Origin: an uncultured Candidatus Saccharibacteria bacterium
GTDB taxonomy: Bacteria; Patescibacteriota; Minisyncoccia; Phycocordibacterales; SBAW01
NCBI GenBank assembly: GCA_964615415.1
Contig: CAZTNI010000001.1
Span: 240,746 to 304,745, forward strand
Length of the DNA: 64,000 bases
Reading direction: 5' to 3'
The position numbers were made by a program, and so were the translations under genes. The notes beneath the pieces are model-generated. The model saw only the letters and a program-made list of their open reading frames with translations, did no database searches and was not told the origin of the DNA. Of the stretch, positions 5,202 to 63,696 are shown one piece after another. The number at the start of each line of letters is the position of its first letter. The first letter of the stretch is position 1.

Positions 5202-5474
5202 AAGCTGAAGTATAGAAACAAAAAATGAAGGGCACATGATGCAAAACGCCGAACGGAAAATCACCGTACAACATGTCTTGCAGAGTTGCAAGTTTTGTTG
5301 GGAGAGAGCTTGGTTAAGAACATTTTTCTGCGGGACTTGGTCAGGCGTTCCAAAATTGCCGTCGCAATTTTGGCCGCACGACCCTGCCTCGCGGTTTCGC
5401 CTGCTGGCGAAACATCGCTCCGGCGTTCAAGTCCCTTCGCAAGCAAAATTGTTTGCTTGCGACTCTCGCTACGC

Positions 5475-5500
5475 AAAAACCGCCCGAAGGCGGTTTTTTG
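5475..5500. terminator. Bidirectional Rho-independent terminator hairpin downstream of tRNA-Asp
   Basis: AAAAACCGCCCGAAGGCGGTTTTTT: a perfect GC-rich stem flanked by an A-tract and a T-tract. Confidence 0.7.
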
Positions 5501-5503
5501 ATG

Positions 5504-5578
5504 CGCGAGAGACGGGACTTGAACCCGCAACCTCCGCCGTGACAGGGCGGCGCTCTAACCAAATTGAGCTACTCCCGC
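5504..5578 (-). tRNA. tRNA-Asp (anticodon GTC)
   Basis: The reverse complement reads GCGGGAGTAGCTCAATTTGGTTAGAGCGCCGCCCTGTCACGGCGGAGGTTGCGGGTTCAAGTCCCGTCTCTCGCG. The anticodon loop is CTGTCAC and the acceptor stem pairs with one G·U pair. Confidence 0.85.
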
Positions 5579-8215: not shown

Positions 8216-9118
8216 TTGCAAGTTCAGGTACACTATGCGGTATCTATGCAGTCAGCAGAGGAGCGCAAACAGCGGATAGAAGCTATTGAAGCTGCTATGG
8301 CTGCGCCTGACTTTTGGAGCGACGTGCAGTCTGCGCAAGCCCTTATTAAAGAATTACAGGAGTTGAAAGTGGAGGCAGAAGGTGGCGGGAAGTACGAAGC
8401 GGGTGGCGCCATCCTTTCGTTTGTTGCGGGCGCTGGTGGTGACGATGCTGAAGATTTTGCCCACATGCTCTACGAAATGTATCGCAAGTTTGCAGAAAAA
8501 AAAGGTTGGGGCCTGCGCGTGCTGCATCAAAACGAAAATGATCACGGCGGGTATCGAAACCTTTCTGTAGAAATTACAGGGAAAAAAGTGTACGGCACGC
8601 TTAAAAATGAATACGGCGTGCACCGCTTGGTGCGCATCTCGCCCTTTAATGCCGCACAAAAGCGCCAGACTTCTTTTGTGCTTGTGGAGGTGCTGCCTAT
8701 TTTGGAAAAAGTTTCCGAAGTAGAAATTCCTGAAAGTGATCTAGAAATTTCTTTCGCTCGTTCAGGCGGGCCGGGCGGGCAAAATGTGAACAAGCGCGAA
8801 ACTGCGGTACGTGTTGTGCACAAACCGACCGGTATTTCAGCACATATGGACGGCGAGCGTAACCAAAATGCTAATAAAGAAAAGGCGATTGCTGTAGTAC
8901 AAGCAAAACTCCTGCATCAGCTTGAAGTTGAGCGGAAGGAAACCATTGCCGACTTGTCGGTCGCGGCAGGTAAAATCGAGTGGGGGAGTCAAATCCGCTC
9001 CTATGTTCTCCATCCTTATAAGCTGGTTAAAGACCACCGTACTGACGTAGAGGTGCGGGATGCAGAGTCTGTATTAGACGGCAACATAGAGGCATTTCTA
9101 GACCAAGCCCAGCAGTAA
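8216..9118 (+). CDS. prfB: Peptide chain release factor 2 (N-terminally short form)
   Basis: SPF motif (RISPFNAAQ) and GGQ motif ([11 protein letters not shown]). The likely start is TTG 8216 or ATG 8246. An in-frame stop at 8186 prevents any longer N-terminus. Confidence 0.8.
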
Positions 9119-9172
9119 GGGGAGTTGTGGTTTTGCACATCTGTAATACTCAAGTATCATATAAGGGTTGTA

Positions 9173-9853
9173 ATGATATATTACGATCGCGTATCCAAAG
9201 TGTACGCAGACAACTCTGTTGCCCTTGAAGACATTTCCTTCTCCGTAGAGCCGGGTGAATTCATTTCCATCGTCGGACATTCAGGGGCTGGCAAAACAAC
9301 TCTCGTAAAACTTCTCCTTGCAGAAGAGCGTCCTTCGACTGGCTCTGTTTTTTTTGAATCTATTAACGTGCACGATATACCACTGCGCAAGATGAACGAC
9401 TTGCGTCGCAAAATAGGTACCGTCTTTCAAGACTTTCGCCTGTTGCCGCAAAAAACTGCATACGAAAACATTGCGTTTGCTATGGAAGCTGCTGGTCGCA
9501 GCGAGGAAGAGATTCATTCTGATGTGCCGCACGTGCTTGAGCTTGTGGACCTGGGCGACAAAATGAATAACTTCCCCGGTGAGCTTTCCGGTGGTGAGCA
9601 GCAACGTGTTGCTATAGCTCGCGCTATCGTGAATCAGCCTGACGTTATCGTTGCGGACGAGCCGACGGGCAACCTCGACCCCGTTAACACATTTGAAGTG
9701 GTGCAAATTTTAAAGAAGATTAACGACCTTGGCACAACTATTATTCTGACTACGCACAATAAAGGAGTGATAGATTCCTTGAAGCGACGCGTCATCACCA
9801 TGGATCGTGGCAAAATTATTCGCGATGACAGGGAAGGTAAATATATATTGTAA
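9173..9853 (+). CDS. ftsE: Cell division ATP-binding protein FtsE
   Basis: MIYYDRVSKVY…GHSGAGKTTL Walker A, the LSGGEQQRVAIARA signature, and the gene sits immediately upstream of an ftsX-like permease. Confidence 0.85.
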   Translation: MIYYDRVSKVYADNSVALEDISFSVEPGEFISIVGHSGAGKTTLVKLLLAEERPSTGSVFFESINVHDIPLRKMNDLRRKIGTVFQDFRLLPQKTAYENIAFAMEAAGRSEEEIHSDVPHVLELVDLGDKMNNFPGELSGGEQQRVAIARAIVNQPDVIVADEPTGNLDPVNTFEVVQILKKINDLGTTIILTTHNKGVIDSLKRRVITMDRGKIIRDDREGKYIL

Positions 9854-12472: not shown

Positions 12473-13423
12473 ATGCAACCGTATATCGTGGCTGGTCTTG
12501 GAGTAGGCGCGCTGCTCGCGGCTTTTGTAGCATGGCAGCCGGTGGTGCCGGTAGCTCAATTGACGTGGGTGAGCGAACAAGAGGAGCAGATAGAGCAAAA
12601 AGCGACAATACTCTTTGGTGGTGATGCGTTTTTCGATCGTTCCGTGCGTACAACGATGGAAGAAAAAGGAGCGCAGTATGTATTTTCGTGCATAGCACCG
12701 CTCTTAAAAGCAGCAGACCTTACGGTATTAAACCTCGAAGGGCCTATTACTGACAACGCATCAGTGAGTGTGGGGAGTGAAGTGGGTTCGCCAAATAATT
12801 TTAGATTTACGTTCCATCCAGATGTAGCGCCGCTTTTGGTAGAGAACAATGTTCGTGTGGTAAACCTTGGTAACAATCACATATTAAATTTTGGATACGA
12901 CGGCGTAGGGCAAACTACCCGCTATCTTGATGCGGCAGGTGTTGCATACTTTGGCGAGCCGGATGCGTATACGGTTACAAAAATGGTGGTCAATGAGATC
13001 CCGCTTGCGTTTATTGGCTATAACGAATTTGGCGGCAGCGCACCGAAAACGCTCGAGCAGATCAAAGTAGCCGTAGAGGAAGGATACCTCCCGGTCGTAT
13101 ATGCACACTGGGGGATCGAGTATGAAACCATCTCGTCTCTTCCGGCGCAGCAGTTGGCGCGCATGTTTGTGGACGCGGGCGCGAAGTTGGTGATAGGCTC
13201 GCATCCGCATGTTATCCAGCAAAGCGAGCTCTACAACGGCGTCCATATTTACTACTCGCTCGGGAATTTCATATTCGACCAATACTGGAACGATGAGGTG
13301 CGCACGGGCTTATTGGTAGAAGCGACGTTCGACAAAAGTGGAGTGCTGTCAGTAGAAGAGGTGCGCACGTACCTTGAACGAGATCGTCGCACGTGTCCGC
13401 TCCCAGAGCCGTTAGTCAACTAA
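12473..13423 (+). CDS. CapA/PGA-biosynthesis family metallophosphatase, membrane-anchored
   Basis: ILFGGDAFFDRS, HWGIEYE and GSHPHVIQ are CapA (poly-gamma-glutamate synthesis) family signatures. There is an N-terminal TM helix. Confidence 0.7.
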   Translation: MQPYIVAGLGVGALLAAFVAWQPVVPVAQLTWVSEQEEQIEQKATILFGGDAFFDRSVRTTMEEKGAQYVFSCIAPLLKAADLTVLNLEGPITDNASVSVGSEVGSPNNFRFTFHPDVAPLLVENNVRVVNLGNNHILNFGYDGVGQTTRYLDAAGVAYFGEPDAYTVTKMVVNEIPLAFIGYNEFGGSAPKTLEQIKVAVEEGYLPVVYAHWGIEYETISSLPAQQLARMFVDAGAKLVIGSHPHVIQQSELYNGVHIYYSLGNFIFDQYWNDEVRTGLLVEATFDKSGVLSVEEVRTYLERDRRTCPLPEPLVN

Positions 13424-14026
13424 TACGGCGTAGACGATTAAGCGGTGTGTATACGTATTCAATTTTTTATCAAACTTCCCCGCACAGGTAATAAGGTTAA
13501 GGCGGGGTTTATCTGCGCGTTCAAATAAAAAGTAGGTTGAAACGTCCTTTAGGTTGGTTAGTTTTGCTTCCTCAACTTTAAAATGTAGCGTCTCTCCGTC
13601 GTTGTTGGTGACGTAGATGTCGTCGCCGGGTTGTACGCGACGTAAATTCCCAAACGCTGCATACACATGAGCGTCGAGCACCGCACTACCTACTTCGCCT
13701 GGAGTAACGCCGCCCGTGTACCAGCCAACGTTTTTACTCTTGCCGTTCGGTACGTCCATTTCACCCTCGGGAGTAATGCCGACTCCTACAATAGAAGCTT
13801 TCAGTTTAATAGAGGGGATGGAAAGGCGGGTCGGAGTAGCACGTGTGGGGAGCGAAGGAGGCGGTACGATTTGTGAGGGTGGTACGACGACTGTTTCGGG
13901 AACGCCTGCTTGCGGCGGAAGTGGAGAGGAGGCGGAGCTAAATGCAGAAAGTGTTTCTTCTTGCACGGCGACGCAAAAAAATATAACGGCACTGAACATG
14001 ACTGAAAAAAGCACTGTGTTTCGCAT
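13412..14026 (-). CDS. Sortase family transpeptidase
   Basis: Active-site TLxTC motif (RLNLITCAG) with the conserved His region, and an N-terminal TM anchor. Start taken at the ATG at 14026; an alternative TTG start lies at 14092. Confidence 0.7.
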   Translation of the reverse strand: MRNTVLFSVMFSAVIFFCVAVQEETLSAFSSASSPLPPQAGVPETVVVPPSQIVPPPSLPTRATPTRLSIPSIKLKASIVGVGITPEGEMDVPNGKSKNVGWYTGGVTPGEVGSAVLDAHVYAAFGNLRRVQPGDDIYVTNNDGETLHFKVEEAKLTNLKDVSTYFLFERADKPRLNLITCAGKFDKKLNTYTHRLIVYAVLVD

Positions 14027-14176
14027 GAAGTGCGATAATTGTAGACGACCAGTTTTGCCTCGTCCAATGAAAGGCTCACAAAATTCAGACAAAAATTCAT
14101 ACTGACTGAAGCGGTTGAGATTCGGGCCTTTTTCAGGTATCTTTGGACTGTATTGCCGGGATCGTTCTCGGTAGAT

Positions 14177-14247
14177 TGCCAGATCGTCTAATGGTAGGAC
14201 AACGGACTCTGAATCCGTTTATCTTGGTTCGAATCCAAGTCTGGCAG
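14177..14247 (+). tRNA. tRNA-Gln (anticodon CTG)
   Basis: TGCCAGATCGTCTAATGGTAGGACAACGGACTCTGAATCCGTTTATCTTGGTTCGAATCCAAGTCTGGCAG. The acceptor stems are perfectly complementary, the D-arm is the short Gln type, and the anticodon loop is CTCTGAA. Confidence 0.85.
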
Positions 14248-14287
14248 CAGAGGAACATCGTGACGAATCGCAGACTTGGATTCGAAC
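14229..14287. repeat. 17-bp perfect inverted repeat formed by the tRNA-Gln 3' end (GTTCGAATCCAAGTCTG) and an inverted copy 25 nt downstream
   Basis: GTTCGAATCCAAGTCTG at 14229-14245 and CAGACTTGGATTCGAAC at 14271-14287. Confidence 0.8.
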
Positions 14288-14370
14288 ACAGGATGGGGTC
14301 GGGAAGGGGTGCTAAGACCTTCCCGTGGAGGAAGGATTGGGAAAACCGAGGGTTTCCCAGCAAGTGAGTG

Positions 14371-14385
14371 ATCCAAGTCTGGCAG
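14371..14385. repeat. Direct partial copy of the tRNA-Gln 3' end (ATCCAAGTCTGGCAG); att-like remnant
   Basis: The sequence is identical to tRNA-Gln positions 14233-14247. It sits in a GAGTGAT…TTTCTGTGTCATAAT context. Confidence 0.7.
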
Positions 14386-14414
14386 CTCGACATTTCTGTG
14401 TCATAATTCGTTCC

Positions 14415-14921
14415 ATGAAAGTCATTCTGTACATGGCAAGCACCGTGAATGGGTTCATCGCAAAATCCACTGATGATACGAGTTGGATAAGTAGCGAAGA
14501 ATGGAATAGTTATAGCAAAGCAACGCGTAAAGCGGGTAATTTGATTGTTGGTCATCGGACCTATGACATTCTTACGAAACAGCGAGAGTTTTCTGAATTC
14601 AAGGATGTAAGAGTGGTAGTGGTAGCCACTACTCCTGTGGAGTTAGTAGCAAAAAATCATTTCGTCGCCTCCAATCCAACGGAAGCGCTGAAAGTGGTGA
14701 GTGATGCAGATGAGATTATTGTTGCAGGTGGAGGAGAACTCAATGCCTCATTCCTGGCTGGGAACTTAGTTGACGAAATCTATCTAGATATAGAACCTCG
14801 GTTCTTCGGTGGGGGAATCGGACTGGCTCATGGTAAGGATTTTGACCTCAAACTAGAACTCGTTGGCACTAAAGAAATTTCACCAAACGAGCTGCAATTA
14901 CATTATCGGGTAGTTAAATAA
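14415..14921 (+). CDS. Dihydrofolate reductase family protein (RibD C-terminal domain type)
   Basis: MKVILYMASTVNGFIAKSTDDTSWISSEEWNSY…VAGGGELNASFL matches the DHFR-like RibD_C/YwjB family. The start was trimmed from the track ORF (14325) to the ATG at 14415. Confidence 0.65.
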   Translation: MKVILYMASTVNGFIAKSTDDTSWISSEEWNSYSKATRKAGNLIVGHRTYDILTKQREFSEFKDVRVVVVATTPVELVAKNHFVASNPTEALKVVSDADEIIVAGGGELNASFLAGNLVDEIYLDIEPRFFGGGIGLAHGKDFDLKLELVGTKEISPNELQLHYRVVK

Positions 14922-15106
14922 GTTCGAATATCGTCCCAGACGGTCAGCAAAATAAAGCGCAGCGAATTTTGCTGCCAGAAGCAGGAGTGCGGGGCACTCC
15001 TGCGGCTTGGATTCGAAAAGCCGGAGCGGGGACCCGTTCAGCAGAACGGGTGGCGAGGCTCGGCTCGAGACCAGTGTGCCGCGACGGCGGCATGCTGAGT
15101 CGAGAG

Positions 15107-15123
15107 GAATCCAAGTCTAGCAG
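15107..15123. repeat. Third direct partial copy of the tRNA-Gln 3' end (GAATCCAAGTCTAGCAG, 1 mismatch)
   Basis: It matches tRNA-Gln 14231-14247 at 16 of 17 positions. Inverted fragments lie nearby at 15006-15017 (CTTGGATTCGAA) and 14971-14983 (TGCTGCCAGAAGC). A GAGTGAT-TTCTGCGACATAAT motif repeats at 15171-15191. Confidence 0.65.
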
Positions 15124-15196
15124 TCAGTTTGAGGTAGGTTCTCGGGCTTGGAACGTGTCGATATGCTCCGAGTGATTTCTGCGACATAATATAAAG

Positions 15197-15793
15197 ATGG
15201 GAATTAAAGAGGTGGTTAGATTTGTAGATTTTCTCAGTGTTTTTCCAAATATCAAAAGAGGAAACAAAATCAAAGGGAAAAATGATTTTGAAAATGATGC
15301 CGAGCATAGCTACCAACTTGCCGTTACGGTTTGGTATCTTGCAGATATTTTGAAGCTTCAAGTCAATCGGCAATTGATTCTAGAATATGCTCTTGCCCAT
15401 GATTTAGTTGAGATATATGCCGGAGATACTGATACTTTTCTTAATAACTCAGATGATCATGCAATTTCAAAACAGAAAAAAGAAGAAGAGGCATTTAATA
15501 AAATAAAACAAGATTTTCCTGAATTTGTGTCTTTGCATAAAAGTATTGAACGATATGAACACCTTTCCGATGCGGAATCAAAACTTGTATATATTGTTGA
15601 TAAAATATTGCCCGACATAAACATCTTTCTTAGTAATGACACTTACTACAAAGATAATGAAGTTACATATGATGGTTGGCAGAAATGGTTTAAATTAAAA
15701 GTACAGAAATCTGGTATTAGAGACGAAAAAATTATGGTCTTGATTGACGAGCTTGCTGAGTTTCAAAAAACCCAAAAAGTTTTTTCTGAATAG
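15197..15793 (+). CDS. HD-domain phosphohydrolase (YfbR-like 5'-deoxynucleotidase family)
   Basis: H…HD…D metal-binding pattern: AEHSYQLAVTVWYLADIL…LAHDLVEIYAGDT. Confidence 0.65.
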   Translation: MGIKEVVRFVDFLSVFPNIKRGNKIKGKNDFENDAEHSYQLAVTVWYLADILKLQVNRQLILEYALAHDLVEIYAGDTDTFLNNSDDHAISKQKKEEEAFNKIKQDFPEFVSLHKSIERYEHLSDAESKLVYIVDKILPDINIFLSNDTYYKDNEVTYDGWQKWFKLKVQKSGIRDEKIMVLIDELAEFQKTQKVFSE

Positions 15794-15858
15794 ACGTCCG
15801 AATAGCGTCGTTTAGAAGATTTTACATAAGCCACTATTTCCAATGAGCTCGACCTGCT

Positions 15859-16728
15859 ATGATGGATTCCATGGCTAAAGTAGTAGCTACCTATCATAAA
15901 GACTGCATCGACGGCACGACTGCCGCGGCGGTTTTGCTGCGTAAGTTTCCTGAGGCTAAGCTTTTCCCGCTTGCGCACGCGTATACTCCTGCGGATTTAG
16001 AAGTAGTATTGCAGGAGGTGGATGCAGGTACGATTTGTTACACGCTCGATTGCGGGCTCGGTGTGCAGGCGTTTTTAGATAAAGGTTGTCAGGTAACGAC
16101 GATCGACCACCACATTGGTGGCAAGGCAGAGTTTGAGGCACTGCAAGCAGCGAACAAAAACTATACCTACGTATTTAATAACGAGAAATCAGGCGCATCG
16201 CTCGCGTGGTCATACTTGTTCTCCGACGAGCCGCTTCCAGAATTAATTAAGCTGGTTGAAGACAGTGACCTCTGGCTCCAGAAGTTCGGAAAAGATACGA
16301 AAGACGTTAACAATTACCTTTCGATGTTTCGTAACGACCCGGCGGCAATATTACGCTGCATAGAAGGCGACCTGAAAGATATTAAAGAAAAGGGAAGCGT
16401 CATTACTATGTACGCAGATAAAGAAGTAGAGGAGCAAATTGCACTCCCTTCCGTGACAGTTACGATTGGTTCATATCAAGTTCCAGCGTTTAATATTACG
16501 TCGTATACATCCGCGAGCGGCAACTTTCTTGCAAAAAAATTAGGCAACGCAGTTGCGATGTTTATTGTTAAGGGAGACGAGGTGAAATTTAGTTTCCGTT
16601 CGCTCGAAGGATACTCGCCATCATCGCTCGAACTCGCAAAACTCCTGGGTGGCGGCGGACACCAAAACGCTGCGGGTGCAACAGTCTCACTTTCAACATT
16701 CCTCAAAATGCTCATCGTATCTAAGTAA
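15859..16728 (+). CDS. DHH/DHHA1 family phosphoesterase (NrnA-like nanoRNase/pAp phosphatase)
   Basis: DHH motif (TIDHHIGG), DHHA1 motif (GGGHQNAAGA) and N-terminal DxD. Confidence 0.75.
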   Translation: MMDSMAKVVATYHKDCIDGTTAAAVLLRKFPEAKLFPLAHAYTPADLEVVLQEVDAGTICYTLDCGLGVQAFLDKGCQVTTIDHHIGGKAEFEALQAANKNYTYVFNNEKSGASLAWSYLFSDEPLPELIKLVEDSDLWLQKFGKDTKDVNNYLSMFRNDPAAILRCIEGDLKDIKEKGSVITMYADKEVEEQIALPSVTVTIGSYQVPAFNITSYTSASGNFLAKKLGNAVAMFIVKGDEVKFSFRSLEGYSPSSLELAKLLGGGGHQNAAGATVSLSTFLKMLIVSK

Positions 16729-17171
16729 TGAAAATTCTTATCATCTCGCCAGGTAAAAAACACGACCATGCGGTCGAGAGTGGTGTTGCGGAGTACGCAA
16801 AGCGCTTGGAGAAAAAATTTCCCCTCGAGTGGGCGTTTCCATCAATTGGTACGAAAGAATCTGAAAGCGAAGCGATACTAAAACAGATCAAAGATACTGA
16901 CGCGGTTGTTCTCCTTGATGAACGAGGAAAAGACATAGACACACCAACCTTTGCAAAGCTGCTTGATAAGCACCTACAGTCGGGCACGAAGCGTCTTGTA
17001 TTTATTGTTGGCGGCGCATTTGGCGTGCACGACTCTGTAAAAGAGCGCGCCGACATGGTTATAAAACTGTCTTCACTCGTATTCCCGCATATGTTGGTGC
17101 GTCTTATTTTGGTAGAGCAGCTCTATCGAGCCTCGTCGATCCTCGAAGGAGGCAAATATCATCACGCGTAA
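16728..17171 (+). CDS. rlmH: 23S rRNA (pseudouridine1915-N3)-methyltransferase RlmH (SPOUT)
   Basis: 147-aa YbeA/RlmH-like sequence (MKILIISPGKK…LVFIVGGAFG…). Confidence 0.75.
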   Translation: MKILIISPGKKHDHAVESGVAEYAKRLEKKFPLEWAFPSIGTKESESEAILKQIKDTDAVVLLDERGKDIDTPTFAKLLDKHLQSGTKRLVFIVGGAFGVHDSVKERADMVIKLSSLVFPHMLVRLILVEQLYRASSILEGGKYHHA

Positions 17172-17173
17172 TT

Positions 17174-17413
17174 ATGTACTTTGTCTACATTCTTGAGTGC
17201 AAAGATGGGTCGCTCTATACCGGCATTACGACAGACGTGGAGCGACGATTTGTAGAACATCAAAAAGGAGTGGGGAGTAACTTTACTCGTGCGAAAAAAG
17301 CTAAGCGGATTGTATATAGCGAGCAACAGGCGAATCGAAGTACTGCCCTTAAACGCGAAGCAGAAATAAAGAAGTTAAAGCGGGAGCAGAAGCTTGCGCT
17401 GATTGAGGTGTAA
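17174..17413 (+). CDS. GIY-YIG nuclease family protein (UPF0213)
   Basis: MYFVYILECKDGSLYTGITTDVERRFVEHQKG is the GIY-YIG motif. Confidence 0.8.
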   Translation: MYFVYILECKDGSLYTGITTDVERRFVEHQKGVGSNFTRAKKAKRIVYSEQQANRSTALKREAEIKKLKREQKLALIEV

Positions 17414-17458
17414 ACAACACGCCTTTCTATTTTGTCCAGAATGCGGTAGGGTACTGAG

Positions 17459-18910
17459 ATGTCTAAGGGTGAAGTAATAGTCCGCTTCGAAGGCGTGTCG
17501 CACAACTTTGGCGTAAGGAAGCCTATTTTAGAGGCTGTGGATTTTTCCCTGCGCCGTGGGATGAAGATAACGCTCATGGGGCAAAACGGCGCGGGCAAAA
17601 GCACCCTCTTTTCGCTCATTACCGGTGCCCAAACTCCAGAGGACGGCATTATTCATATTCAACATGGTCTTACGATAGCGATCGGTCGCCAGGTTATCCC
17701 GCGCGACCAGCTCGACTTAACGGTGCGCGAATTTTTTCAAAAAGTATTTCCTGCAAAAGTCTACGACATTGACCCGAAGATAGATAAAATTTTAGAAGTC
17801 GTTAACCTTGTTGCGCCGTACGACAAGGTAATCCGCTCGTTTTCGGGTGGGCAGCAGGCACGCCTCCTCCTTGCTTCGGCCCTGATCCAAAACCCTGACC
17901 TTTTGTTGCTCGACGAGCCGACCAACAATCTCGACAAAGAGGGCATTGAACACCTAACGAAGTTTTTGATCGACTATAAAAAGACAGTGATGGTCATTTC
18001 TCACGATGCGGAATTTCTTAACTCGTTTACGCAAGGCGTCTTATACCTCGACGTGCATACACACAAGATAGAGCAGTACGTCGGTAACTACTTTGACGTG
18101 GTGGCGCAAATTTCTGCACGTATCGAAAAAGAAAATAGAAAAAATGCACTCTTGGCAAAAGAGATTCAGGAAAATAAAGACAAGGCGAACTTTTTTGCAA
18201 ACAAGGGAGGTCAGATGCGTATGGTGGCAAAGCGCATGCGCGAAAAGGCTGCAGAACTTGAGGAAGAAAAGGTAGATGTCCGCAAGGAAGACAAGGCGAT
18301 CCGTCCGTTCGTTATCCCGCACCAGCCTGACCTCATTGGTGACATCATTCAAATTAGTTCGTTCTTGATGATTAAAAATCACAAGCCAGTGCAGCGCAAA
18401 ACTAAACTCGCACTCCGTAAAAACCAACACCTGCAGTTGGTTGGTCCTAATGGTATTGGTAAGTCGACGCTGCTTGAGTCTATTGCAAGCGGCACGGCCG
18501 AAGGTTCGACCGTTATGCCGGGCGTGCGTGTTGGGTACTATCGCCAAGATTTTTCTAACCTCGATTTTGAAAAGACTGTGCATGACGAACTTGAGGCGGC
18601 TATGGATCGTCCGTACGAAGAGACGCTGCGCTCTGTTGCGGCTGGGTTTTTAATTAATGGCGAGCTGATTAATACAAAAATTGGTCACCTTTCGGAAGGA
18701 CAAAAAGGCTTGGTGGCGTTTGCGCGCTTGGTATTGATGAAGCCAGGTCTTCTTATTTTGGACGAACCGACGAACCATATTAACTTCCGCCACCTTCCGG
18801 TTATTGCAGAGGCGCTTAACAAATACGAAGGAGCGATGATCCTTGTCTCGCACGTGCCGGACTTTGTAAAACAGATCCGCATAGACGAAGTGCTCGACCT
18901 CGAAAAGTAG
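17459..18910 (+). CDS. ABC-F family ATPase (two tandem ABC domains, no TM domain)
   Basis: Two Walker A motifs (GQNGAGKST, GPNGIGKST) and two signature/Walker B regions (SGGQQARL…LLLDEPTNNLD; LSEGQKGL…LILDEPTNH). Confidence 0.8.
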   Translation: MSKGEVIVRFEGVSHNFGVRKPILEAVDFSLRRGMKITLMGQNGAGKSTLFSLITGAQTPEDGIIHIQHGLTIAIGRQVIPRDQLDLTVREFFQKVFPAKVYDIDPKIDKILEVVNLVAPYDKVIRSFSGGQQARLLLASALIQNPDLLLLDEPTNNLDKEGIEHLTKFLIDYKKTVMVISHDAEFLNSFTQGVLYLDVHTHKIEQYVGNYFDVVAQISARIEKENRKNALLAKEIQENKDKANFFANKGGQMRMVAKRMREKAAELEEEKVDVRKEDKAIRPFVIPHQPDLIGDIIQISSFLMIKNHKPVQRKTKLALRKNQHLQLVGPNGIGKSTLLESIASGTAEGSTVMPGVRVGYYRQDFSNLDFEKTVHDELEAAMDRPYEETLRSVAAGFLINGELINTKIGHLSEGQKGLVAFARLVLMKPGLLILDEPTNHINFRHLPVIAEALNKYEGAMILVSHVPDFVKQIRIDEVLDLEK

Positions 18911-18911
18911 T

Positions 18912-20147
18912 ATGTACGACTTACTAGTCATAGGTGGTGGTGCGTCTGGCATGATGGCAGCGGGTACTGCGGCTGCGCGTGGGAAAAAAGTGCTGCTACT
19001 CGAAAAAAACAGAACACTCGGTGAAAAACTGAAAATAACCGGCGGCGGCCGCTGCAACGTAACAAATGCGGAAGACGACGTGCACGAGCTGCTTAAGAAG
19101 TATGGCAAGGCGGAACAATTTCTTTACTCGGTGTTTGCACAGTTTGGTGTAAAGGATACCTTTTCCTTTTTTGAATCAAAAGGTTTGCCACTCGTGGTGC
19201 AGGCGCGCAAGCGTGCCTTCCCGCACACAGAAAAAGCTCGCGACGTGTTTGCCGTACTAGAGACGTACGTAAAAAAGAGCGGCGTCGTTGTTAAAAATGC
19301 CTCCCCGGTGACGCGCATAGAAACAGCGTCAGACGGAACTGTTGCTGCTGTCTATTGTGGCAAGGAACGGTATGAAGCAACTGCCTATGTACTTGCGACG
19401 GGAAGCATGTCACACCCAGAAACTGGCTCAACGGGAGATGGCTTTGAGTGGCTGCGTGACTTAGGCCACACGGTGCATGCGCCAACGCCCACCATTGTGC
19501 CGCTTGCAGTAAAAGAAGAGTGGGTAAAGCAACTTTCGGGAGCATCGCTCTCGTTTATGAAAATCACCTTCTTTTTGGAAGGGAAGAAAAAATTTTCTGA
19601 GACAGGGAAGATTCTTTTTACACACTTTGGCCTCTCGGGTCCGCTTATTTTAAACAGTGCACACAAAGTGCAAGACTTGCTCTATAGCGGGATCGTCACT
19701 GCAACGATAGATGCCTACCCACACACGGACCTCGGTGCCTTGGAAGATACGGTCATTAAAGTGTTTGATGCGCACAAAAACAAGACATTTAAAAACATTG
19801 TCCGCGAGTTCGTGCCCGAAGGTACACACAAGGGCATACTTACCTTGCTTGCAGAGCGTATGGATGTAACGAAGAAAGTGCACTCGATAACGCGCGAAGA
19901 GCGTAAGGTGGTGGTGCAACTCCTCAAAGCCCTGCCGCTTACCATTGAAGGGCTGATGGGCTTTGACCGGGCAGTTGTTGCCGACGGTGGCGTGCCGCTT
20001 GAGGAAGTAGACATGCGCACCATGCGCTCCAAAAAGGTCCCTAACCTCTATATCGTAGGAGACTTGCTCCACATTAACCGTCCCTCAGGAGGCTTTTCTC
20101 TGCAGCTCTGCTGGTCCACAGGCTTTGTTGCCGGGCAACATGTGTGA
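18912..20147 (+). CDS. FAD-dependent oxidoreductase, HI0933/BaiN-like flavoprotein family
   Basis: N-terminal dinucleotide-binding motif MYDLLVIGGGASGMMAAG and the overall ~410-aa architecture of the HI0933 family. Confidence 0.7.
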   Translation: MYDLLVIGGGASGMMAAGTAAARGKKVLLLEKNRTLGEKLKITGGGRCNVTNAEDDVHELLKKYGKAEQFLYSVFAQFGVKDTFSFFESKGLPLVVQARKRAFPHTEKARDVFAVLETYVKKSGVVVKNASPVTRIETASDGTVAAVYCGKERYEATAYVLATGSMSHPETGSTGDGFEWLRDLGHTVHAPTPTIVPLAVKEEWVKQLSGASLSFMKITFFLEGKKKFSETGKILFTHFGLSGPLILNSAHKVQDLLYSGIVTATIDAYPHTDLGALEDTVIKVFDAHKNKTFKNIVREFVPEGTHKGILTLLAERMDVTKKVHSITREERKVVVQLLKALPLTIEGLMGFDRAVVADGGVPLEEVDMRTMRSKKVPNLYIVGDLLHINRPSGGFSLQLCWSTGFVAGQHV

Positions 20148-20292
20148 GGTCTTCATGATCCGGTAGGGCTAGACAGATCCTTCTCGACAGGTATAGTGAA
20201 AAAGTTAGGCACATAGCACGATCTATAGGGGAATTCATATCTGAAAAGGTATGAATTTTTTATTTCGCGTGATTGTCTGACCATATCACTCT

Positions 20293-21621
20293 ATGTTGAT
20301 ATTATCGAACGGATTTCCGACAAACCTTCCTGACTCAGATATTGTCTCTCAAGGAGGGCCTGCAAATTTTGCACGCCTATTCATAAACTATATCCTCTCT
20401 TCTGGTGCAGAGCATAAGTGGGTGGGTGTTATGCTCGAGGGAAGTAACTCTCGAGGTATTTACATGGAAGAGGTGTTTGCGTCTACTTATAGACGCTACT
20501 ATCGCTTGCGTGCGCCAAAAGCGATCATCAATAAAGTAACCCAAGCAAAAAGTTCTCGCGTAAAGCCTGTCGTGGCGTGGAAAAAACCTATTGCAGCACT
20601 TGTTTCTCTTATAGAAGAGCAAAAACCCGACGTTGTGTTTCTAAACGGCTTCGGCGTTTTTAATTGGATGCTACTCCAGGCTGCTAAGGAAACAAATACG
20701 CCGGTCGTGATTCAACATGCGGGAATTTGGACCAAGGAATTAGGTATACATAAAGACCGCTATACGGAGCAGGGTAGAAAATTGCTCGAACGCATGGAGC
20801 AAGATTCTACAGAGCTCTCTTCAATAGAAATTTTTCTTAATACCTGGAGTCGCGAGTATTATGCGACCCATGTTGCTTCGGGCGACGCGCGCAAGACAGA
20901 GATTGTCCCCCTGCCGTTCGACTTCACTTCTTTTAAACAACTGCACAGCAGTGTAACCGCATCTAAATTTTCTTTTTCTACTAAGAAGTTCCATGTCGGC
21001 ATCATTGCTCGGTGGGATGAGATTAAAAATCATGCCGCCGTTCTTGCTCTTGCAAAAGCGGCTCGTGCACAAAAATTACCGTGGCAGTTTCATGCAATAG
21101 TGGACATTCCCGCGTCAGAAGATGCGGCAACGGTGCAGGAGTATAAAAAATATGTTGATGTTATTCCTCCAGTCGATCGCGCAGGCATTTCTGCGTTTTG
21201 TAGTGCGGTCGACCTGCTTTTACTACCATCGTTGTTTGACGTGTCTCCCACGGTGGTGCTGGAAGCGGTCGCGCTTAAAACTCCTATCGTTATCTCGGAA
21301 ACAGTAGGGTATGTGCGAGATTTTGCGTCTCATGGCGCAGCGGAGTGGGTTATAGATCCTTCTGATGTAGCGCAATCTTTAGAAAATCTAAAAAACATTA
21401 TGGGAAAGGAGATGCCAGCTGACTTTACTAATTACATAGTGCGTGCACACAACCATACGCAAGTATTTGCAACCTATCTCGAACTATTTGAGATAGCAAA
21501 ATTAAAATCTCTTCCTATGCCGCAAGTAGTACGAAAACTCTTCCGTAAAGAATTAGGAAAGTATCTGCCTTTTTTGACAGAAGCTTCACAAAAGAAAAAG
21601 GAAAAAGTTGTATCTGCATAA
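20293..21621 (+). CDS. Glycosyltransferase (GT-B fold, GT4-like C-terminal domain)
   Basis: The C-terminal half (…IIARWDEIKNHAAVLALAKAA…EAVALKTPIVISETVGY…) is GT1/GT4-like. The start is uncertain. Confidence 0.55.
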   Translation: MLILSNGFPTNLPDSDIVSQGGPANFARLFINYILSSGAEHKWVGVMLEGSNSRGIYMEEVFASTYRRYYRLRAPKAIINKVTQAKSSRVKPVVAWKKPIAALVSLIEEQKPDVVFLNGFGVFNWMLLQAAKETNTPVVIQHAGIWTKELGIHKDRYTEQGRKLLERMEQDSTELSSIEIFLNTWSREYYATHVASGDARKTEIVPLPFDFTSFKQLHSSVTASKFSFSTKKFHVGIIARWDEIKNHAAVLALAKAARAQKLPWQFHAIVDIPASEDAATVQEYKKYVDVIPPVDRAGISAFCSAVDLLLLPSLFDVSPTVVLEAVALKTPIVISETVGYVRDFASHGAAEWVIDPSDVAQSLENLKNIMGKEMPADFTNYIVRAHNHTQVFATYLELFEIAKLKSLPMPQVVRKLFRKELGKYLPFLTEASQKKKEKVVSA

Positions 21622-21636
21622 TGGTATACTACGCGT

Positions 21637-21876
21637 ATGGAACCAAAGCGACTTTTTAAGAGCGAAGAAAATCGGGTGTTTGCAGGAGTCTTCGGCGGTT
21701 TGGGCGAGTACTTTACCGTCGACCCAGTTATCTTGCGCGTGTTGTGGGTCGTAGTAGTTATCTTCACCGCATTCATTCCGGGCGTCATCGCGTACATTCT
21801 TGCTGCTATTATTATTCCAAGGCGGCCGGTACGTGTGCACCACCAAGAGACACATCACCACGAGTCGCACTCGTAA
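21637..21876 (+). CDS. PspC-domain protein
   Basis: RLFKSEENRVFAGVFGGLGEYFTVDPVILRV is the PspC domain motif, followed by a TM helix. Confidence 0.75.
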   Translation: MEPKRLFKSEENRVFAGVFGGLGEYFTVDPVILRVLWVVVVIFTAFIPGVIAYILAAIIIPRRPVRVHHQETHHHESHS

Positions 21877-22437
21877 ATGACTCATCGTAAACGCGCAGGA
21901 TTCGTGCAAGACTTGGGCATTATTGCGCTAAGTATTTTTGCTGCGATTGTTCTAGTAAAGACGGACGTTATTGTAAATATCCTTACCTCTTCAAAAGAGC
22001 TGGAATTTTTCGGTAGCTTTATTGCGGGCATGTTTTTTACCTCGGTGTTTACGACCGTGCCTGCAATAGTGACGCTTGGAGAAATTGCGCAAGAGTATTC
22101 GCTCGTTATGACCGCGCTCCTGGGTGGTGCGGGAGCGGTGCTTGGCGACCTGCTTATTTTCCGTTTTGTGCGCGACCGCTTTTCGCAACACTTGCTTGAA
22201 GTGATGGGATTGAAAGGTGGTCCACGCCGCTTTACACGCCTCTTTAGTAAAGGTCCGCTGCGCTGGGTAACCTTCCTGCTCGGTGGTCTTATCATTGCTT
22301 CGCCTTTGCCGGATGAGTTAGGCATTAGTCTATTAGGCTTTACGAAAATGAAACTTGCATGGTTTATTCCGCTTGCATTTACGTTTAATGCGATAGGAAT
22401 TTTCCTTATTGGCCTTGCCGCTCGAGCAGTTGGGTAA
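21877..22437 (+). CDS. Hypothetical polytopic membrane protein; start codon abuts the pspC stop
   Basis: 186 aa with 5-6 TM helices. It appears to be operonic with the PspC-domain gene. Confidence 0.5.
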   Translation: MTHRKRAGFVQDLGIIALSIFAAIVLVKTDVIVNILTSSKELEFFGSFIAGMFFTSVFTTVPAIVTLGEIAQEYSLVMTALLGGAGAVLGDLLIFRFVRDRFSQHLLEVMGLKGGPRRFTRLFSKGPLRWVTFLLGGLIIASPLPDELGISLLGFTKMKLAWFIPLAFTFNAIGIFLIGLAARAVG

Positions 22438-22449
22438 TATAGTCAATCT

Positions 22450-23325
22450 ATGAAATATCTTATATATATTCTTGTTGCTGCGGCGGTGCTTGTGGGCGGC
22501 TTTTTTGCCCTCAATACCTATATTTATAAAGAAAAGCAGGGGCCAACTGACTATAAAAACGCAACGTATGTAGTGGAGGGCGAGCCAGTCACTCTCTCGA
22601 ATGGTGTTTCAGCGGATGGAAGTACTCGATACTTTGGAAATGAAGTAACGGGCGATCTTAATGCGGACGGTCGTCCTGATCGCGCCTTCCTACTTACTTC
22701 AGATGGTGGTGGTAGTGGCATCTTTTATTACCTGGTAGGAGCGTTGCAAACCGAGGCAGGAACATACAACGGCACGCGCGCTGTGTTTGTCGGTGATCGT
22801 ATTGCGCCCCAAACTACAGAGTTTCAAAACGGTATCGTTGTTGTGAACTATGCGGATCGTGCCCCGGGTGAGCCTATGACTGCGCAGCCTTCAGTCGGTA
22901 AGACGTTGCGTTTGAAATACGACCCTGTTGGAGAAGATTTCGGCATCGTCGCAAATAATTTTGAAGGTGAGGCAGACCCGTCACGCATGACGCTCAGTAT
23001 GCAGACGTGGGTCTGGGACTCTGCGCTCTATAACGATGGTCGTGAAATAACTCCAAAGAAGACTGGGGCATTTACACTCACGTTTAAAACAGACGGTACA
23101 TTTACCGCTACGACTGACTGCAACCAAATGGGCGGGAGCTATACGACTGCTGCCAACAATCAAATTACATTTGGTGACATCTACATGACCAAAATGTTCT
23201 GTGAAGGTTCGCAAGAAATAGAGTTTTCACAAATGCTCTCAAACACGAGCGGCTATCACTTTACGTCGCGCGGGCAGCTCATACTCGACCTCAAGTTCGA
23301 CAGCGGCTCGGTTGTCTTCCACTAA
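22450..23325 (+). CDS. Secreted META/DUF306 (HslJ-like) domain protein
   Basis: N-terminal TM/signal. The C-terminal domain motifs CNQMGGSY…FGDIYMTKMFC are typical of META/HslJ domains. Confidence 0.55.
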   Translation: MKYLIYILVAAAVLVGGFFALNTYIYKEKQGPTDYKNATYVVEGEPVTLSNGVSADGSTRYFGNEVTGDLNADGRPDRAFLLTSDGGGSGIFYYLVGALQTEAGTYNGTRAVFVGDRIAPQTTEFQNGIVVVNYADRAPGEPMTAQPSVGKTLRLKYDPVGEDFGIVANNFEGEADPSRMTLSMQTWVWDSALYNDGREITPKKTGAFTLTFKTDGTFTATTDCNQMGGSYTTAANNQITFGDIYMTKMFCEGSQEIEFSQMLSNTSGYHFTSRGQLILDLKFDSGSVVFH

Positions 23326-23394
23326 TTATCCCCGGCGGGTCCGTGCGTGCGCAAAACTGATGCTACGATGAAGCCATATAGGTAATTTGTATAT

Positions 23395-23778
23395 ATGGAT
23401 ATCTTTTTTGCGAAGTTCCTTGGTCTTTACTTTGTGATCGTTGGTCTCATTGTGATGATTCGTAAGCAGTCGATCATGCCAACCATGAAGGAACTGCTTA
23501 AAAATCGCTCGCTTTTGTTCTTGCTCGGTATCGCACATCTTACAGCGGGTCTTGTTATTGTCATTACACACCCGATGCTTGCACTCAATGTGCCGGGTGT
23601 TATCTCGCTCATTGGTTGGATCATGACTATTGAAGGTATTTTGTACCTTGCGATGCCGTATCGCGCAGTTCAAAAATTTATTGGAAGCTTTAACCAGCAA
23701 GGATGGTACACCTCGGGCGGTATTGCAGCAGTGCTCCTTGGTATGTACTTGGTCTGGTACGGATTCGGCTTGATGTAA
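23395..23778 (+). CDS. Hypothetical small membrane protein (4 TM)
   Basis: 127-aa hydrophobic ORF. Confidence 0.45.
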   Translation: MDIFFAKFLGLYFVIVGLIVMIRKQSIMPTMKELLKNRSLLFLLGIAHLTAGLVIVITHPMLALNVPGVISLIGWIMTIEGILYLAMPYRAVQKFIGSFNQQGWYTSGGIAAVLLGMYLVWYGFGLM

Positions 23779-23804
23779 TTGGCAGTTTGGTATACTAGTT
23801 CTCT

Positions 23805-24767
23805 ATGCATTCTGAAAACGCGATAGAAATTCGCGGCTTGGTAAAGTCGTATAAAAAATTACAGGTGCTCAAAGGTTTGGATCTTTCGGTGCAAAAGGGC
23901 ACCATGTTGGCCTTGTTGGGACCAAACGGTGCAGGCAAAACGACCACAGTTAAAATCCTTAGTACACTTCTCAAGCCCGACCAAGGCGAGGTTCGAGTTA
24001 ATGGCCTCGATGTGGTTGCCGACGCTGACGGTGTGCGCCACTCAATTGGCTTAACAGGTCAATACGCGGCGGTTGATGAATATTTGACCGGGCGAGAGAA
24101 CCTGGTCATGATGGGGCGTCTGTATCATCTTTCAAAAGCGGCCGCACAAAAGCGCGCGCAGGAACTGCTTGAGCAGTTTGACCTTGTCGAAGCCGCAGAA
24201 CGTGCAGCAAAAACATACTCAGGCGGCATGCGCCGTCGTCTCGACCTTGCGGCAAGCCTAGTTGCTACTCCTCCTATTGTTTTCCTCGATGAGCCGACGA
24301 CCGGCCTCGACCCTCGCAGCCGCATTAACATGTGGGGCGTCATTAAAGGTCTTATGGCCTCTGGCGTTACTATTTTGCTCACTACGCAGTACTTGGAAGA
24401 GGCCGATAAATTGGCAGACCGTATCGCTGTGCTCGACCAAGGAAAGATTATTGCAGAGGGAACTGCCGACACGCTGAAGGCGGGGATTGGCAGCGAACGC
24501 ATTGAGGTAGTGATAGAAAAGCCTCAAGACTTTGAGAGTGCTTTAAAACTTCTTGCAGGAGCTGGCGTACAAGTAGACAAAGAAGAGCGCAGTATTAGCG
24601 TGCCTATTGATGGTAGCGTGGGTGCGGTAAAACGCGTACTCGACTTGCTGCACGACGCAAAAATTGAAATCGATACCATGTCAGTGCACAAACCAACACT
24701 CGACGACGTATTTTTGCACTTAACAGGTCGAGGCGTTGAAACAAAAGAAGAAAAAGTAACTGCATAA
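23805..24767 (+). CDS. ABC transporter ATP-binding protein (DrrA-like, ABC-2 exporter type)
   Basis: Walker A LLGPNGAGKTTT, signature YSGGMRRRL and Walker B IVFLDEPTTGLD. Confidence 0.8.
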   Translation: MHSENAIEIRGLVKSYKKLQVLKGLDLSVQKGTMLALLGPNGAGKTTTVKILSTLLKPDQGEVRVNGLDVVADADGVRHSIGLTGQYAAVDEYLTGRENLVMMGRLYHLSKAAAQKRAQELLEQFDLVEAAERAAKTYSGGMRRRLDLAASLVATPPIVFLDEPTTGLDPRSRINMWGVIKGLMASGVTILLTTQYLEEADKLADRIAVLDQGKIIAEGTADTLKAGIGSERIEVVIEKPQDFESALKLLAGAGVQVDKEERSISVPIDGSVGAVKRVLDLLHDAKIEIDTMSVHKPTLDDVFLHLTGRGVETKEEKVTA

Positions 24768-24771
24768 CCAT

Positions 24772-63648: not shown

Positions 63649-63653
63649 AAATA

Positions 63654-63687: not shown

Positions 63688-63696
63688 GAGGAGGGT

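Follow-up and report, generated by a model that had tools for sequence, protein, structure and literature searches.

A family of structured noncoding modules was found behind tRNA genes in the 64-kb stretch of DNA analyzed here (the window; coordinates are window positions unless a locus is named) and at other loci. Each module starts with an inverted copy and ends with a direct copy of the 3′ end of the tRNA gene that it follows. Two modules (A and B) lie behind a tRNA-Gln gene and one (C) lies behind a tRNA-Asp gene, and these three are the only modules in the window. We are confident that they belong to a recurrent, structurally constrained noncoding family that is inserted behind tRNA genes with a duplicated tRNA end, has arms matching the local tRNA, and sometimes encloses accessory genes. 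The family is apparently undescribed, sits behind many tRNA genes in “Candidatus Adlerbacteria,” of the Candidate Phyla Radiation (CPR), and brackets small accessory-gene islets. For the mechanism we lean, at slightly below even confidence, toward the repeats being arms of small nonautonomous cassettes that would target tRNA 3′ ends and be mobilized in trans as a folded single strand.

Copies of the tRNA-Gln 3′ end

The original prediction described direct and inverted copies of the tRNA-Gln 3′ end downstream of the gene. All of these were present, far above chance, and the source of every arm copy was site S (14227-14247), the last ∼20 nt of the tRNA gene. Direct copies were located at 14371-14385 (ATCCAAGTCTGGCAG; 15/15 matches) and 15107-15123 (GAATCCAAGTCTAGCAG; 16/17). 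The inverted copies comprised a perfect 17-mer at 14271-14287, opposite 14227-14243, a 12/12 match at 15006-15017, and a 10/10 match at 14970-14979 (TGCTGCCAGA), which complements TCTGGCAG plus the two trailer bases CA after the discriminator. The last of these had been placed at 14971-14983; the copy itself was real, and its coordinates have been corrected. A degenerate direct copy at 14922-14948 had been missed, and degenerate tRNA-end copies were present at the equivalent position in loci L057, L058, L060, and L061. A 20-mer of the tRNA end, with up to 3 mismatches allowed, had no match in 100 shuffles of the window, and GGATTCGAA occurred three times in the window, each time at the tRNA-Gln locus, against an expectation of 0.41. 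A second repeated motif that had been reported was also real (14392-14407 and 15175-15190; 14/16 positions).

Logan contigs of SRR14271366, SRR14271376, and SRR14271374, which are independent assemblies, were 100% identical to the window over 13606-24921, indicating that the arrangement of the locus is not a collapsed repeat. ARAGORN and Rfam, from which the tRNA calls were taken, gave a single tRNA in 13300-16000; misassembly and misread additional tRNA genes, both named beforehand as possible sources of the copies, were thus not found. The hairpin formed by the tRNA end with the left arm of module A (14227-14287), proposed as a possible tRNA-proximal terminator, was strong (−29.6 kcal/mol; z = −5.0). 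Because no U tract follows it (the next bases are CACAGGAUGGGG), it does not qualify as a canonical terminator, and a terminator scan did not list it. The other tRNAs of the window (two tRNA-Met and two tRNA-Thr) had no arm copies above chance 10-mers.

Anatomy of the modules

The repeats were found to be paired, with each inverted copy (left arm, LA) being followed ∼90 nt on by a direct copy (right arm, RA). Pairing of LA with RA closes a GC-rich hairpin segment (module A, 14271-14385; module B, 14970-15123), and folds of the intergenic stretches gave z scores of −4.0, −5.5, and −6.1 relative to shuffles. The general plan was a spacer, often with a terminator-like hairpin, followed by LA, a structured core, and RA. 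LA is the reverse complement of the T-loop, the T-stem 3′ strand, and the acceptor 3′ strand, RA is a direct copy of the last 13 to 21 nt, and in many modules LA is split by a hairpin termed H1.

In module A, LA complements six more T-loop bases (14282-14287) than RA can pair with. L052 and an L007 remnant share the conserved spacer at 14248-14270, which is therefore part of the element rather than native flank. In module B, the split left arm runs in the order antisense acceptor strand, H1, antisense T-stem plus T-loop, giving an outer (LAo) and an inner (LAi) part; this module (fold z score, −6.1) matched a type-1 covariance model, R1, at 14974-15123 with 83.5 bits (E = 1.8e-22).

Similar duplications at other tRNA ends had been recommended as a target for searches, and the same architecture was indeed present behind tRNA-Asp on the minus strand (module C, 5331-5469), where it had been overlooked. 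Cores B and C have in common all four elements of core B listed in Table 1 (shared loop sequence, CAGCA), while their stems differ. The LAo of module C, GCGAGAG, places an A opposite U69 of the G4.U69 pair of tRNA-Asp and is hence complementary to the tRNA 3′ strand rather than copied from the 5′ strand. The antisense character of the left arm includes the T-loop, with ACTTGAA in Asp modules versus TTCAAGT in the sense T-loop.

Two structural candidates were rejected. A mini-tRNA with an insertion in the T-loop did not fit, as the left arms of Asp and Met modules carry the antisense loop (ACTTGAA and ACTTGCA). An H/ACA-like guide pocket (guide-hairpin-guide on one target strand) was discounted as the unpaired target dinucleotide is absent for Gln and is GU, not UN, for Asp; to our knowledge, bacteria also lack H/ACA machinery, which was counted against this pocket.

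Recurrence across loci

A protein search with FtsX yielded 38 syntenic loci, mostly labeled “Ca. Adlerbacteria” or Paceibacterota, with the remainder having other or unspecific CPR labels. These loci contained 114 tRNAs with full flanks, in which matches of at least 10 nt were counted. An inverted copy of the tRNA's own 3′ end lay within 150 nt downstream for 14/114 tRNAs and upstream for 0/114, compared with 2/114 for a control using the tail of another tRNA type. Direct copies of at least 10 nt were detected at +60 to +360 for 18 tRNAs versus 5 upstream, the latter being due to isoacceptor neighbors. The inverted copies lay at a fixed position, 20 to 80 nt past the tRNA, and the arms always matched the local tRNA. 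Modules were associated with tRNA-Gln, tRNA-Asp, two types of tRNA-Met, and tRNA-Thr in many species, and some were within tRNA clusters (L037 and L013).

Three core types recurred. Type 1 was found in modules B and C of the window and in L007, L010 (two modules), L013, L028, L030, L037 (two modules), and L042; type 2 in module A, L006, L022, and behind tRNA-Thr of L010; and type 3 in L040, L030, and L003. The type-2 core was kept across four loci (GGGGTCGGGAA..TTCCCGTGG.GGAA), while its arms tracked the sequence of the tRNA-Gln (..CCAAGTCTGGCAG in the window versus ..CCTAGTCCCGCAAC in L022). A metagenome pattern made up of the Gln arms only (CTTGGATTCGAA, 70 to 100 nt, CCAAGTCTNGCAG) recovered 12 contigs, of which 10 carried modules and 2 represented one chance match in a coding region. 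In these contigs, Gln arms plus an H1-type hairpin with compensatory changes were joined to type-1, type-2, and type-3 cores.

No match to the three core motifs was detected in 2.9 million viral contigs. Only the tRNA passed the Rfam gathering threshold at the locus (the next best hit, sul1 RNA, scored 19.2 bits against a threshold of 36.2), and Rfam gave no match for module C or for metagenome examples of core types 1 to 3. A full-text literature search found no description of such elements, which is absence of evidence only.

Modules were absent behind all seven tRNA-Gln genes with an encoded CCA (L014, L027, L032, L033, L034, L035, and L039), while 4 or 5 of ∼24 tRNA-Gln genes without an encoded CCA had one. 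The displaced copy in L062 reads ..GGCAG-CTA, compared with ..GGCAG-CCA in a relative with an empty site. Read from these sequences, this hints that the cassette may supply the tRNA with its new, CCA-less 3′ end.

Other rearrangements were seen at these loci. In L030, tRNA-Thr(ggt) is followed after 12 nt by a 39-nt copy, a classical tandem duplication of the 3′ half (1472-1600), and a weak type-1-like match (1342-1449) lies upstream of the tRNA-Thr and carries a direct copy of that tRNA's 5′ end. The same locus has GC-rich tandem repeats of ∼45 nt (GAGCGTCGAGCGAGGGCGTCCCGAG.CCAGCAGGGCGAGGGGCAAC) immediately after tRNA-Gln (8978-9200), representing a different repeat at the same hot spot, and L007 contains a pseudo 3′ half of tRNA-Gln (13022-13073). 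A perfect inverted repeat of 325 bp surrounds 7.6 kb in L022 (1-325 and 7973-8297), each copy containing a module-like structured segment with a weak match to the type-1 model (20 bits); possible explanations for this pair are an invertible segment, a composite element, and an assembly artifact. In L003 (167-1496; European Nucleotide Archive k141_139570), an IS110-family element with a gene at 245-1294 and a subterminal inverted repeat (ATGAACCCC/GGGGTTCAT) is inserted in a type-3 core at CCTGTACTG^CTCCTGTAAGG, which suggests that modules are numerous enough in this genome to be a target for an insertion sequence (IS). An IS110 element, suggested by the IS110 gene beside the modules at the locus of the closest HD-gene homolog (L003), was set aside as a lead, with the L003 element sitting inside a core and the window lacking an IS110 homolog; a tblastn search of the window with the L003 IS110 protein gave nothing better than an E value of 0.45.

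Structure and covariation

The type-1 covariance model had 13 matches at E < 1e-4. Eleven of these began within ∼100 nt downstream of a tRNA, and the other two, module B and a module in L053 (4602-4740), were 0.7 and 4.3 kb downstream of a tRNA-Gln, respectively. No tRNA was found in locus L057. In the alignment of 13 type-1 modules, 90.3% of cells were paired versus 67.5% in shuffles, while controls with slid partners had 29 to 45% of cells paired. Compensatory changes were extensive: 30/39 pairs of the type-1 core vary on both sides, and all 11 pairs of H1 covary over the 13 modules.

Folding was more stable on the tRNA-sense strand for 24/25 modules, a bias that points to G.U or G.T pairs on this strand. 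One helix (helix 2 of type-1 alignment A3) joins 15008-15014 with ∼15059-15064 of the window and consists almost wholly of G.U pairs. In this helix, the inner left arm can alternatively pair with a conserved core segment (GGGGC/AGGGU/UCGGC), with 95% of cells paired and one-sided changes only. Helix 2 may thus act as a structural switch, in competition with the pairing of the two arms.

Filled and empty sites

The presence of modules was patchy between species, and the native flank resumed after RA. At tRNA-Asp, L032 has 15 nt up to a tRNA-Thr; L037 has at this position a module plus a 20-nt duplicate of the tRNA-Asp end, after which a short flank resembles that of L032. Convergent tRNA-Met and tRNA-Asp genes are 16 nt apart in L009 and 746 nt apart in L010, in which there is one module behind each gene. 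At tRNA-Gln, the empty site of L032 reads tRNA-Gln-CCA and then AGTCGAGATAGGTTATCCC, while the filled site of L062 has tRNA-Gln, a spacer, a split left arm, a type-3 core, a right arm, and then CTAACTTGAGATAGGTTATCCC; the flank (A/G)(C/T)T(T/C)GAGATAGGTTATCCC thus resumes past RA. These comparisons indicated that the inserted unit consists of spacer, LA, core, and a 13- to 21-nt copy of the tRNA end. They also bore out the proposal that the direct copies mark the boundaries of insertions.

Larger units enclosed genes. In L053, tRNA-Gln is followed by a type-3 module, 4.3 kb of accessory genes, a distal type-1 module, and a tRNA-end copy; the four cargo genes encode one protein of unknown function, a NUDIX protein, a GNAT fusion, and a peptidase S51. 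In L061, a gene and a degenerate tRNA-end copy precede the module, and the downstream flank is as in L062. A segment of ∼47 nt in L053, comprising the last tRNA bases, the terminator-like spacer, and the outer left arm, is near-identical at the tRNA and at the distal module 4.3 kb away (278-325 and 4560-4610). No recombinase was present in the islets inspected (window, L053, L057, and L007).

The tRNA-Gln islet and its genes

The tRNA-Gln locus had been put forward as an insertion site and proved to be a hot spot. In L034, a homolog (61% identity) of the DHH-family gene begins 8 nt after tRNA-Gln; since the window has 1.6 kb at this point, 14249-15858 represents an insertion relative to L034. 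Neither of the two genes in this islet, encoding a RibD_C/dihydrofolate reductase (DHFR)-family reductase and an HD-domain hydrolase, was present in any of the 38 syntenic loci. Genes for a sortase and a PGA_cap protein (Pfam) lie upstream of tRNA-Gln.

The family assignment of the DHFR-like gene was confirmed by Pfam (RibD_C, 63.7 bits versus a cutoff of 24.1, E = 2.6e-17; DHFR_1, 25.0 versus 25.0). It is not the only cargo, as had been thought, because the HD gene is part of the same islet. Homologs of the DHFR-family protein with 62 to 77% identity are widespread in CPR and beyond; one adjoins ClpP and one is in a serine-recombinase island. Neither of two homolog loci (L046 and L047) contained a tRNA by ARAGORN or a match to the type-1 model. 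The island is that of L047 (1454-2752; 66% identity), with a large serine recombinase and methyltransferase, GrpB, HAD, and NUDIX genes, and from this gene content the reductase appears to move with mobile DNA in other lineages too. The HD gene has a GC content of ∼30% (window, 48%), and its closest homolog (71% identity, L003) is likewise preceded by two modules.

The second repeated motif forms the −10 part of promoter-like sites before both cargo genes, and the −35-like CTGGCA of the DHFR-family gene sits within the tRNA-end copy of RA-A. An open reading frame (ORF) with a GTG start (14325-14921; 198 amino acids) runs through core A and RA-A and continues in frame into the DHFR-family gene; it is probably fortuitous, as the ATG at 14415 comes after the promoter-like site.

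The earlier statement that no integrase remains agreed with the Pfam results: no recombinase or integrase, transposase, or reverse transcriptase was detected in the window ORFs examined, i.e., those outside 15-1994, 41019-48059 (a 2346-amino-acid ORF), and 61251-63770. Comparison with relatives had been recommended to look for an intact island with an integrase; none of the module-bearing islets examined contained an integrase.

Table 1. Features of the tRNA-Gln and tRNA-Asp loci of the window
Feature	Position	Strand	Remarks
tRNA-Gln(CTG)	14177-14247	+	ARAGORN; Rfam tRNA, 66.2 bits, E = 1.4e-13
Inserted islet with modules A and B and the DHFR-family and HD genes	14249-15858	+	Between tRNA-Gln and the DHH-family gene
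Spacer of type-2 module (CAGAGGAACATCGTGACGAATCG)	14248-14270	+	Kept in L052 and in the L007 remnant
LA-A, left arm of A	14271-14287	+	Perfect 17-nt reverse complement of tRNA positions 53-69 (14227-14243)
Core A (type 2), GGGGTCGGGAA..TTCCCGTGGAGGAA..AAACCGAGGGTTTCCC, two hairpins	14288-14370	+	Conserved in L006, L052, L022 (alignment A4); also L010 tRNA-Thr
RA-A, right arm of A	14371-14385	+	Exact 15-nt direct copy; 11 bp with LA-A
Promoter-like site (−35 CTGGCA, 17 nt, TG-CATAAT)	14379-14407	+	−10 part is the second motif
Cargo gene 1, 168-amino-acid RibD_C/DHFR-family reductase	14415-14921	+	Pfam RibD_C, DHFR_1
Degenerate direct copy of tRNA-Gln 3′ end (GTTCGAATATCGTCCCAGACGGTCAGC)	14922-14948	+	Right after the DHFR stop codon; read from the sequence
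Palindromic spacer (CAGCAAAAT..ATTTTGCTG) into LAo-B	14945-14979	+	Same design in L051, L057-L062
LAo-B (TGCTGCCAGA)	14970-14979	+	Reverse complement of acceptor 3′ strand, discriminator base, CA
H1, 10-bp hairpin splitting left arm of B	14981-15003	+	Self-complementarity; helix 1 of the covariation analysis
LAi-B	15006-15017	+	Reverse complement of T-loop plus T-stem 3′ strand (CTTGGATTCGAA)
Core B (type 1): GCCGGAGCG, hairpin (loop CAGC), GCGAGGC, hairpin (GCGACGGC)	15018-15106	+	
RA-B	15107-15123	+	Direct copy of tRNA-Gln 3′ end, 1 mismatch; pairs with LAi-B
Second promoter-motif copy (GAGTGATTTCTGCGACATAAT)	15171-15191	+	Ahead of the HD gene
Cargo gene 2, HD-domain (YfbR-like) hydrolase, ∼30% GC	15197-15793	+	Pfam HD_3, E = 2.6e-20
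tRNA-Asp(GTC), anchor of module C	5503-5578	−	ARAGORN
Terminator-like hairpin between tRNA-Asp and module C	∼5474-5499	−	
Module C (type 1)	5331-5469	−	Asp-specific arms; R1 match 5323-5469, 141.7 bits
Module C LAo, GCGAGAG, antisense acceptor	5463-5469	−	
Module C LAi, GGGACTTGAAC, antisense T-arm	5425-5435	−	Preceded by 11-bp hairpin H1
Module C RA, CAAGTCCCG	5331-5339	−	After a core homologous to the B core

Mechanism and alternative explanations

In the reading that we tentatively prefer, the LA/RA stem of a single strand would, once folded, mimic the double-stranded end of the tRNA gene (its last ∼20 bp, T-loop included). A hypothetical recombinase encoded elsewhere in the genome would exchange strands between this block and the tRNA gene, so that insertion would leave a duplicate of the tRNA end; incoming cassettes would be placed next to the tRNA, displacing older ones downstream. 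The order in the window could then be read as tRNA-Gln, cassette A (geneless), the DHFR-family gene with module B, the HD gene, and the DHH gene. Trans-mobilized cassettes are favored because the stem mimics the target duplex, as in integron attC and CTX attP(+). A tRNA-like RNA fold makes little sense because the stem reproduces the duplex of the gene end, T-loop bases included.

Several observations weigh against this mechanism. The window ORFs examined and the islets inspected gave no recombinase, transposase, or reverse transcriptase, and neither an excised form nor polymorphism within the population was seen, all contigs of this organism being identical. A given core type can carry arms for different tRNAs, and one Gln arm is found on different cores; such swapping is a difficulty because a simple site-specific cassette cannot change its arms on moving to another tRNA. 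The unpaired motifs conserved in the cores and the G.U-rich helices are more reminiscent of a functional RNA than of the part of attC that varies, and the attC R-box consensus is not matched. A geneless cassette of 140 to 200 bp is very small for a circular double-stranded intermediate, and the ∼47-nt near-identity within L053 is not predicted by a simple model of one cassette per insertion.

The main alternative, which we consider possible but doubtful, is that the modules act as RNA. A structured noncoding RNA would be transcribed in the orientation of the tRNA, either by read-through or from a start of its own. The left arm would be antisense to the 3′ half of the neighboring tRNA, with the right arm as a decoy, and the RNA could act on the 3′ maturation or the folding of the tRNA. 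It could instead direct, as a guide RNA (guide-hairpin-guide), an RNA-guided recombinase or nuclease whose gene lies elsewhere, in which case the insertion behavior would be accounted for as well. Consistent with an RNA role are the better folding of the tRNA-sense strand in 24/25 modules, the many G.U pairs, with helix 2 almost entirely G.U, and conserved junction nucleotides and covarying stems like those of riboswitches and ribozymes. In addition, LA complements the six T-loop bases beyond the reach of RA (14282-14287) and is perfect where RA has decayed (13 versus 6 nt for L007 Met, 11 versus 7 for L010 Asp, and 11 versus 8 for L013 Asp), and some modules lie inside tRNA clusters (L037 and L013). 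However, a terminator-like A-tract/hairpin/T-tract usually stands between tRNA and module, there is no evident promoter ahead of LA, one arm design occurs on three unrelated cores, and no Rfam family matches. The arm also complements the genomic trailer (..GCAG-CA) and not the mature ..G-CCA end, and an RNA role alone leaves the duplicated tRNA end and the native flank after it unexplained. A related proposal, which we regard as unlikely, is a reprogrammable tRNA-end integration system, a guide-directed gene-capture system distinct from integrons, IS110 bridge RNAs, and CRISPR-associated transposons. In it, the split left arm (antisense acceptor, scaffold hairpin, antisense T-arm) and the right arm would serve as guides (RNA or folded single-stranded DNA) that set the target by base pairing. 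One trans enzyme could then place cassettes behind any tRNA matching the arms, and arms and cores would be exchangeable.

The original prediction interpreted the copies as decayed att sites. In such a scenario, serial integration and excision of integrase islands at tRNA-Gln would have left ordinary attL/attR scars, with the integrase lost and the inverted copies as by-products. This is quite unlikely, even though the inserted DNA is bounded by direct repeats of the tRNA 3′ end, the islet has accessory genes of atypical composition, classical 3′-half duplications exist at neighboring loci (L007 tRNA-Gln and L030 tRNA-Thr), and a DHFR-family homolog is found in the L047 island with a large serine recombinase. 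It offers no account of the inverted copies, each of which pairs with the next direct copy within a conserved, covarying module, of their fixed position 20 to 80 nt after the tRNA, or of their splitting by H1; it also leaves unexplained the conserved, covarying cores that separate inverted from direct copies and the recurrence at four tRNA types in many species, and no integrase was found in any islet examined. Replication accidents, in which fold-back or template switching at the terminator hairpin behind the tRNA generates functionless inverted duplications, would fit with the tRNA end, palindromic spacer, and LA forming one long imperfect palindrome, with a 29-bp stem at tRNA-Asp of L030. 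Such copying would not explain why H1 occupies one and the same junction across Asp, Met, and Gln modules or why a core of one of the three conserved types and then a direct copy come next, and hence we consider it very improbable. Finally, an artifact or misreading (a collapsed tandem tRNA-Gln array or extra tRNA genes or pseudogenes) is scarcely credible. Module B can be drawn as an acceptor-like stem, one hairpin, and a T-stem-like helix, but three independent assemblies are 100% identical, ARAGORN and Rfam give one tRNA only, and the left arm is antisense through the T-loop (ACTTGAA versus the sense TTCAAGT).

Comparison with known systems

Known systems share one or two traits each with the modules, and every system whose defining features were tested fails on at least one; CTX-type and pdif elements were compared from general knowledge only. 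Integron cassettes likewise combine a promoter-poor ORF with a following 60- to 150-nt imperfect palindrome (attC) in which structure is conserved over sequence, and attC similarly folds as a single strand with a stem that mimics a double-stranded recombination site. Cassette arrays are built at one fixed chromosomal site, and geneless cassettes exist. The modules showed this single-strand imperfect palindrome with conserved structure (fold z scores of −4 to −6; 30/39 compensatory pairs). In contrast to integrons, they are anchored at a tRNA 3′ end and not at attI, their arms vary by tRNA and enclose a conserved rather than a variable region (three core types), and the favored strand is gene-sense. 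The R-box consensus (RYYYAAC/GTTRRRY) is absent from the outer ends, which are copies of the acceptor strand (CAGA../..TCTGGCAG); a GTTCGAA/TTCGAAC motif at the inner end of the palindrome breaks the consensus at two positions. No IntI-like gene was found by Pfam near the tRNA-Gln locus or in the other ORFs examined.

In CTX attP(+), two inverted copies of the chromosomal target ∼90 nt apart anneal in single-stranded DNA and rebuild the target duplex. CTX and integrative mobile elements exploiting Xer (IMEX) use a host-encoded recombinase (Xer) acting in trans, and tandem arrays form. The modules resemble these in having inverted target copies ∼90 nt apart that anneal in a single strand, but the target is the end of a tRNA gene and not dif, and the elements are 0.14 to 4 kb with no phage genes. 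Acinetobacter pdif modules consist of genes between inverted recombination sites without an internal recombinase gene. Discrete gene modules bounded by inverted sites and lacking a recombinase gene are thus a common trait, while pdif sites are XerC/D dif-like 28-mers on plasmids and those described here are chromosomal tRNA-end copies that enclose a structured core.

Islands of tyrosine integrases targeted to tRNA genes share the insertion at the tRNA 3′ end, direct tRNA-end repeats, accessory cargo, and a region that varies between species. Direct repeats at both ends were found (14227-14247 versus 14371-14385 and 15107-15123; 20 to 21 nt in L037 and L040), but no integrase lies beside the att site in the window islet, L053, L057, or L007. 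Unlike such islands, each unit also has an inverted target copy and a structured core and may be as small as ∼140 bp.

Miniature inverted-repeat transposable elements (MITEs), repetitive extragenic palindromic doublets forming hairpins (REPINs), and palindrome-associated transposable elements (PATEs) of the IS200/IS605 family are also small, noncoding, hairpin-rich intergenic elements served by an enzyme in trans. MITEs have constant inverted repeats and many near-identical copies; the terminal inverted repeats of the modules are instead the end of the neighboring tRNA, and modules B and C share a core while having Gln and Asp arms, respectively. In IS200/IS605 elements, an internal sequence base-pairs with the cleavage or target site, and the system acts on single-stranded DNA. 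These elements use 4- to 5-nt targets and make no duplication, whereas the modules have a 13- to 21-nt target copy in addition to hairpins; no Y1 transposase was found in the 64 kb. The bridge RNA of IS110 is similarly a structured RNA (∼150 to 200 nt) in which a loop of guide-hairpin-guide design is complementary to the site of insertion. In the modules, however, the complementarity of the two left-arm halves is to a single strand and extends over the full ∼20 nt; these halves also pair with the right arm, there is no neighboring DEDD recombinase gene, and the IS110 element of L003 uses a module as its target. Neither a cloverleaf nor a sense T-loop, expected of a tRNA or tRNA pseudogene, was found in the modules.

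Biological significance

The modules explain GC-rich “orphan” intergenic blocks and contig breaks beside tRNA genes in Adlerbacteria assemblies and provide three new structured motifs for RNA and repeat libraries. Their arm design sets a copy of the target and its full-length complement around a conserved fold on the same strand. This follows a logic like that of attC and CTX attP with a target that varies by site; should the arms indeed define the target, such a system could be programmed. The genomes of CPR bacteria are tiny and contain few recognizable mobile elements, and hence the gain and loss of accessory genes in these organisms are poorly understood. Recombinase-less tRNA-end cassettes with genes for a DHFR-family reductase, an HD hydrolase, NUDIX and GNAT proteins, and a peptidase would be a concrete route for such traffic.

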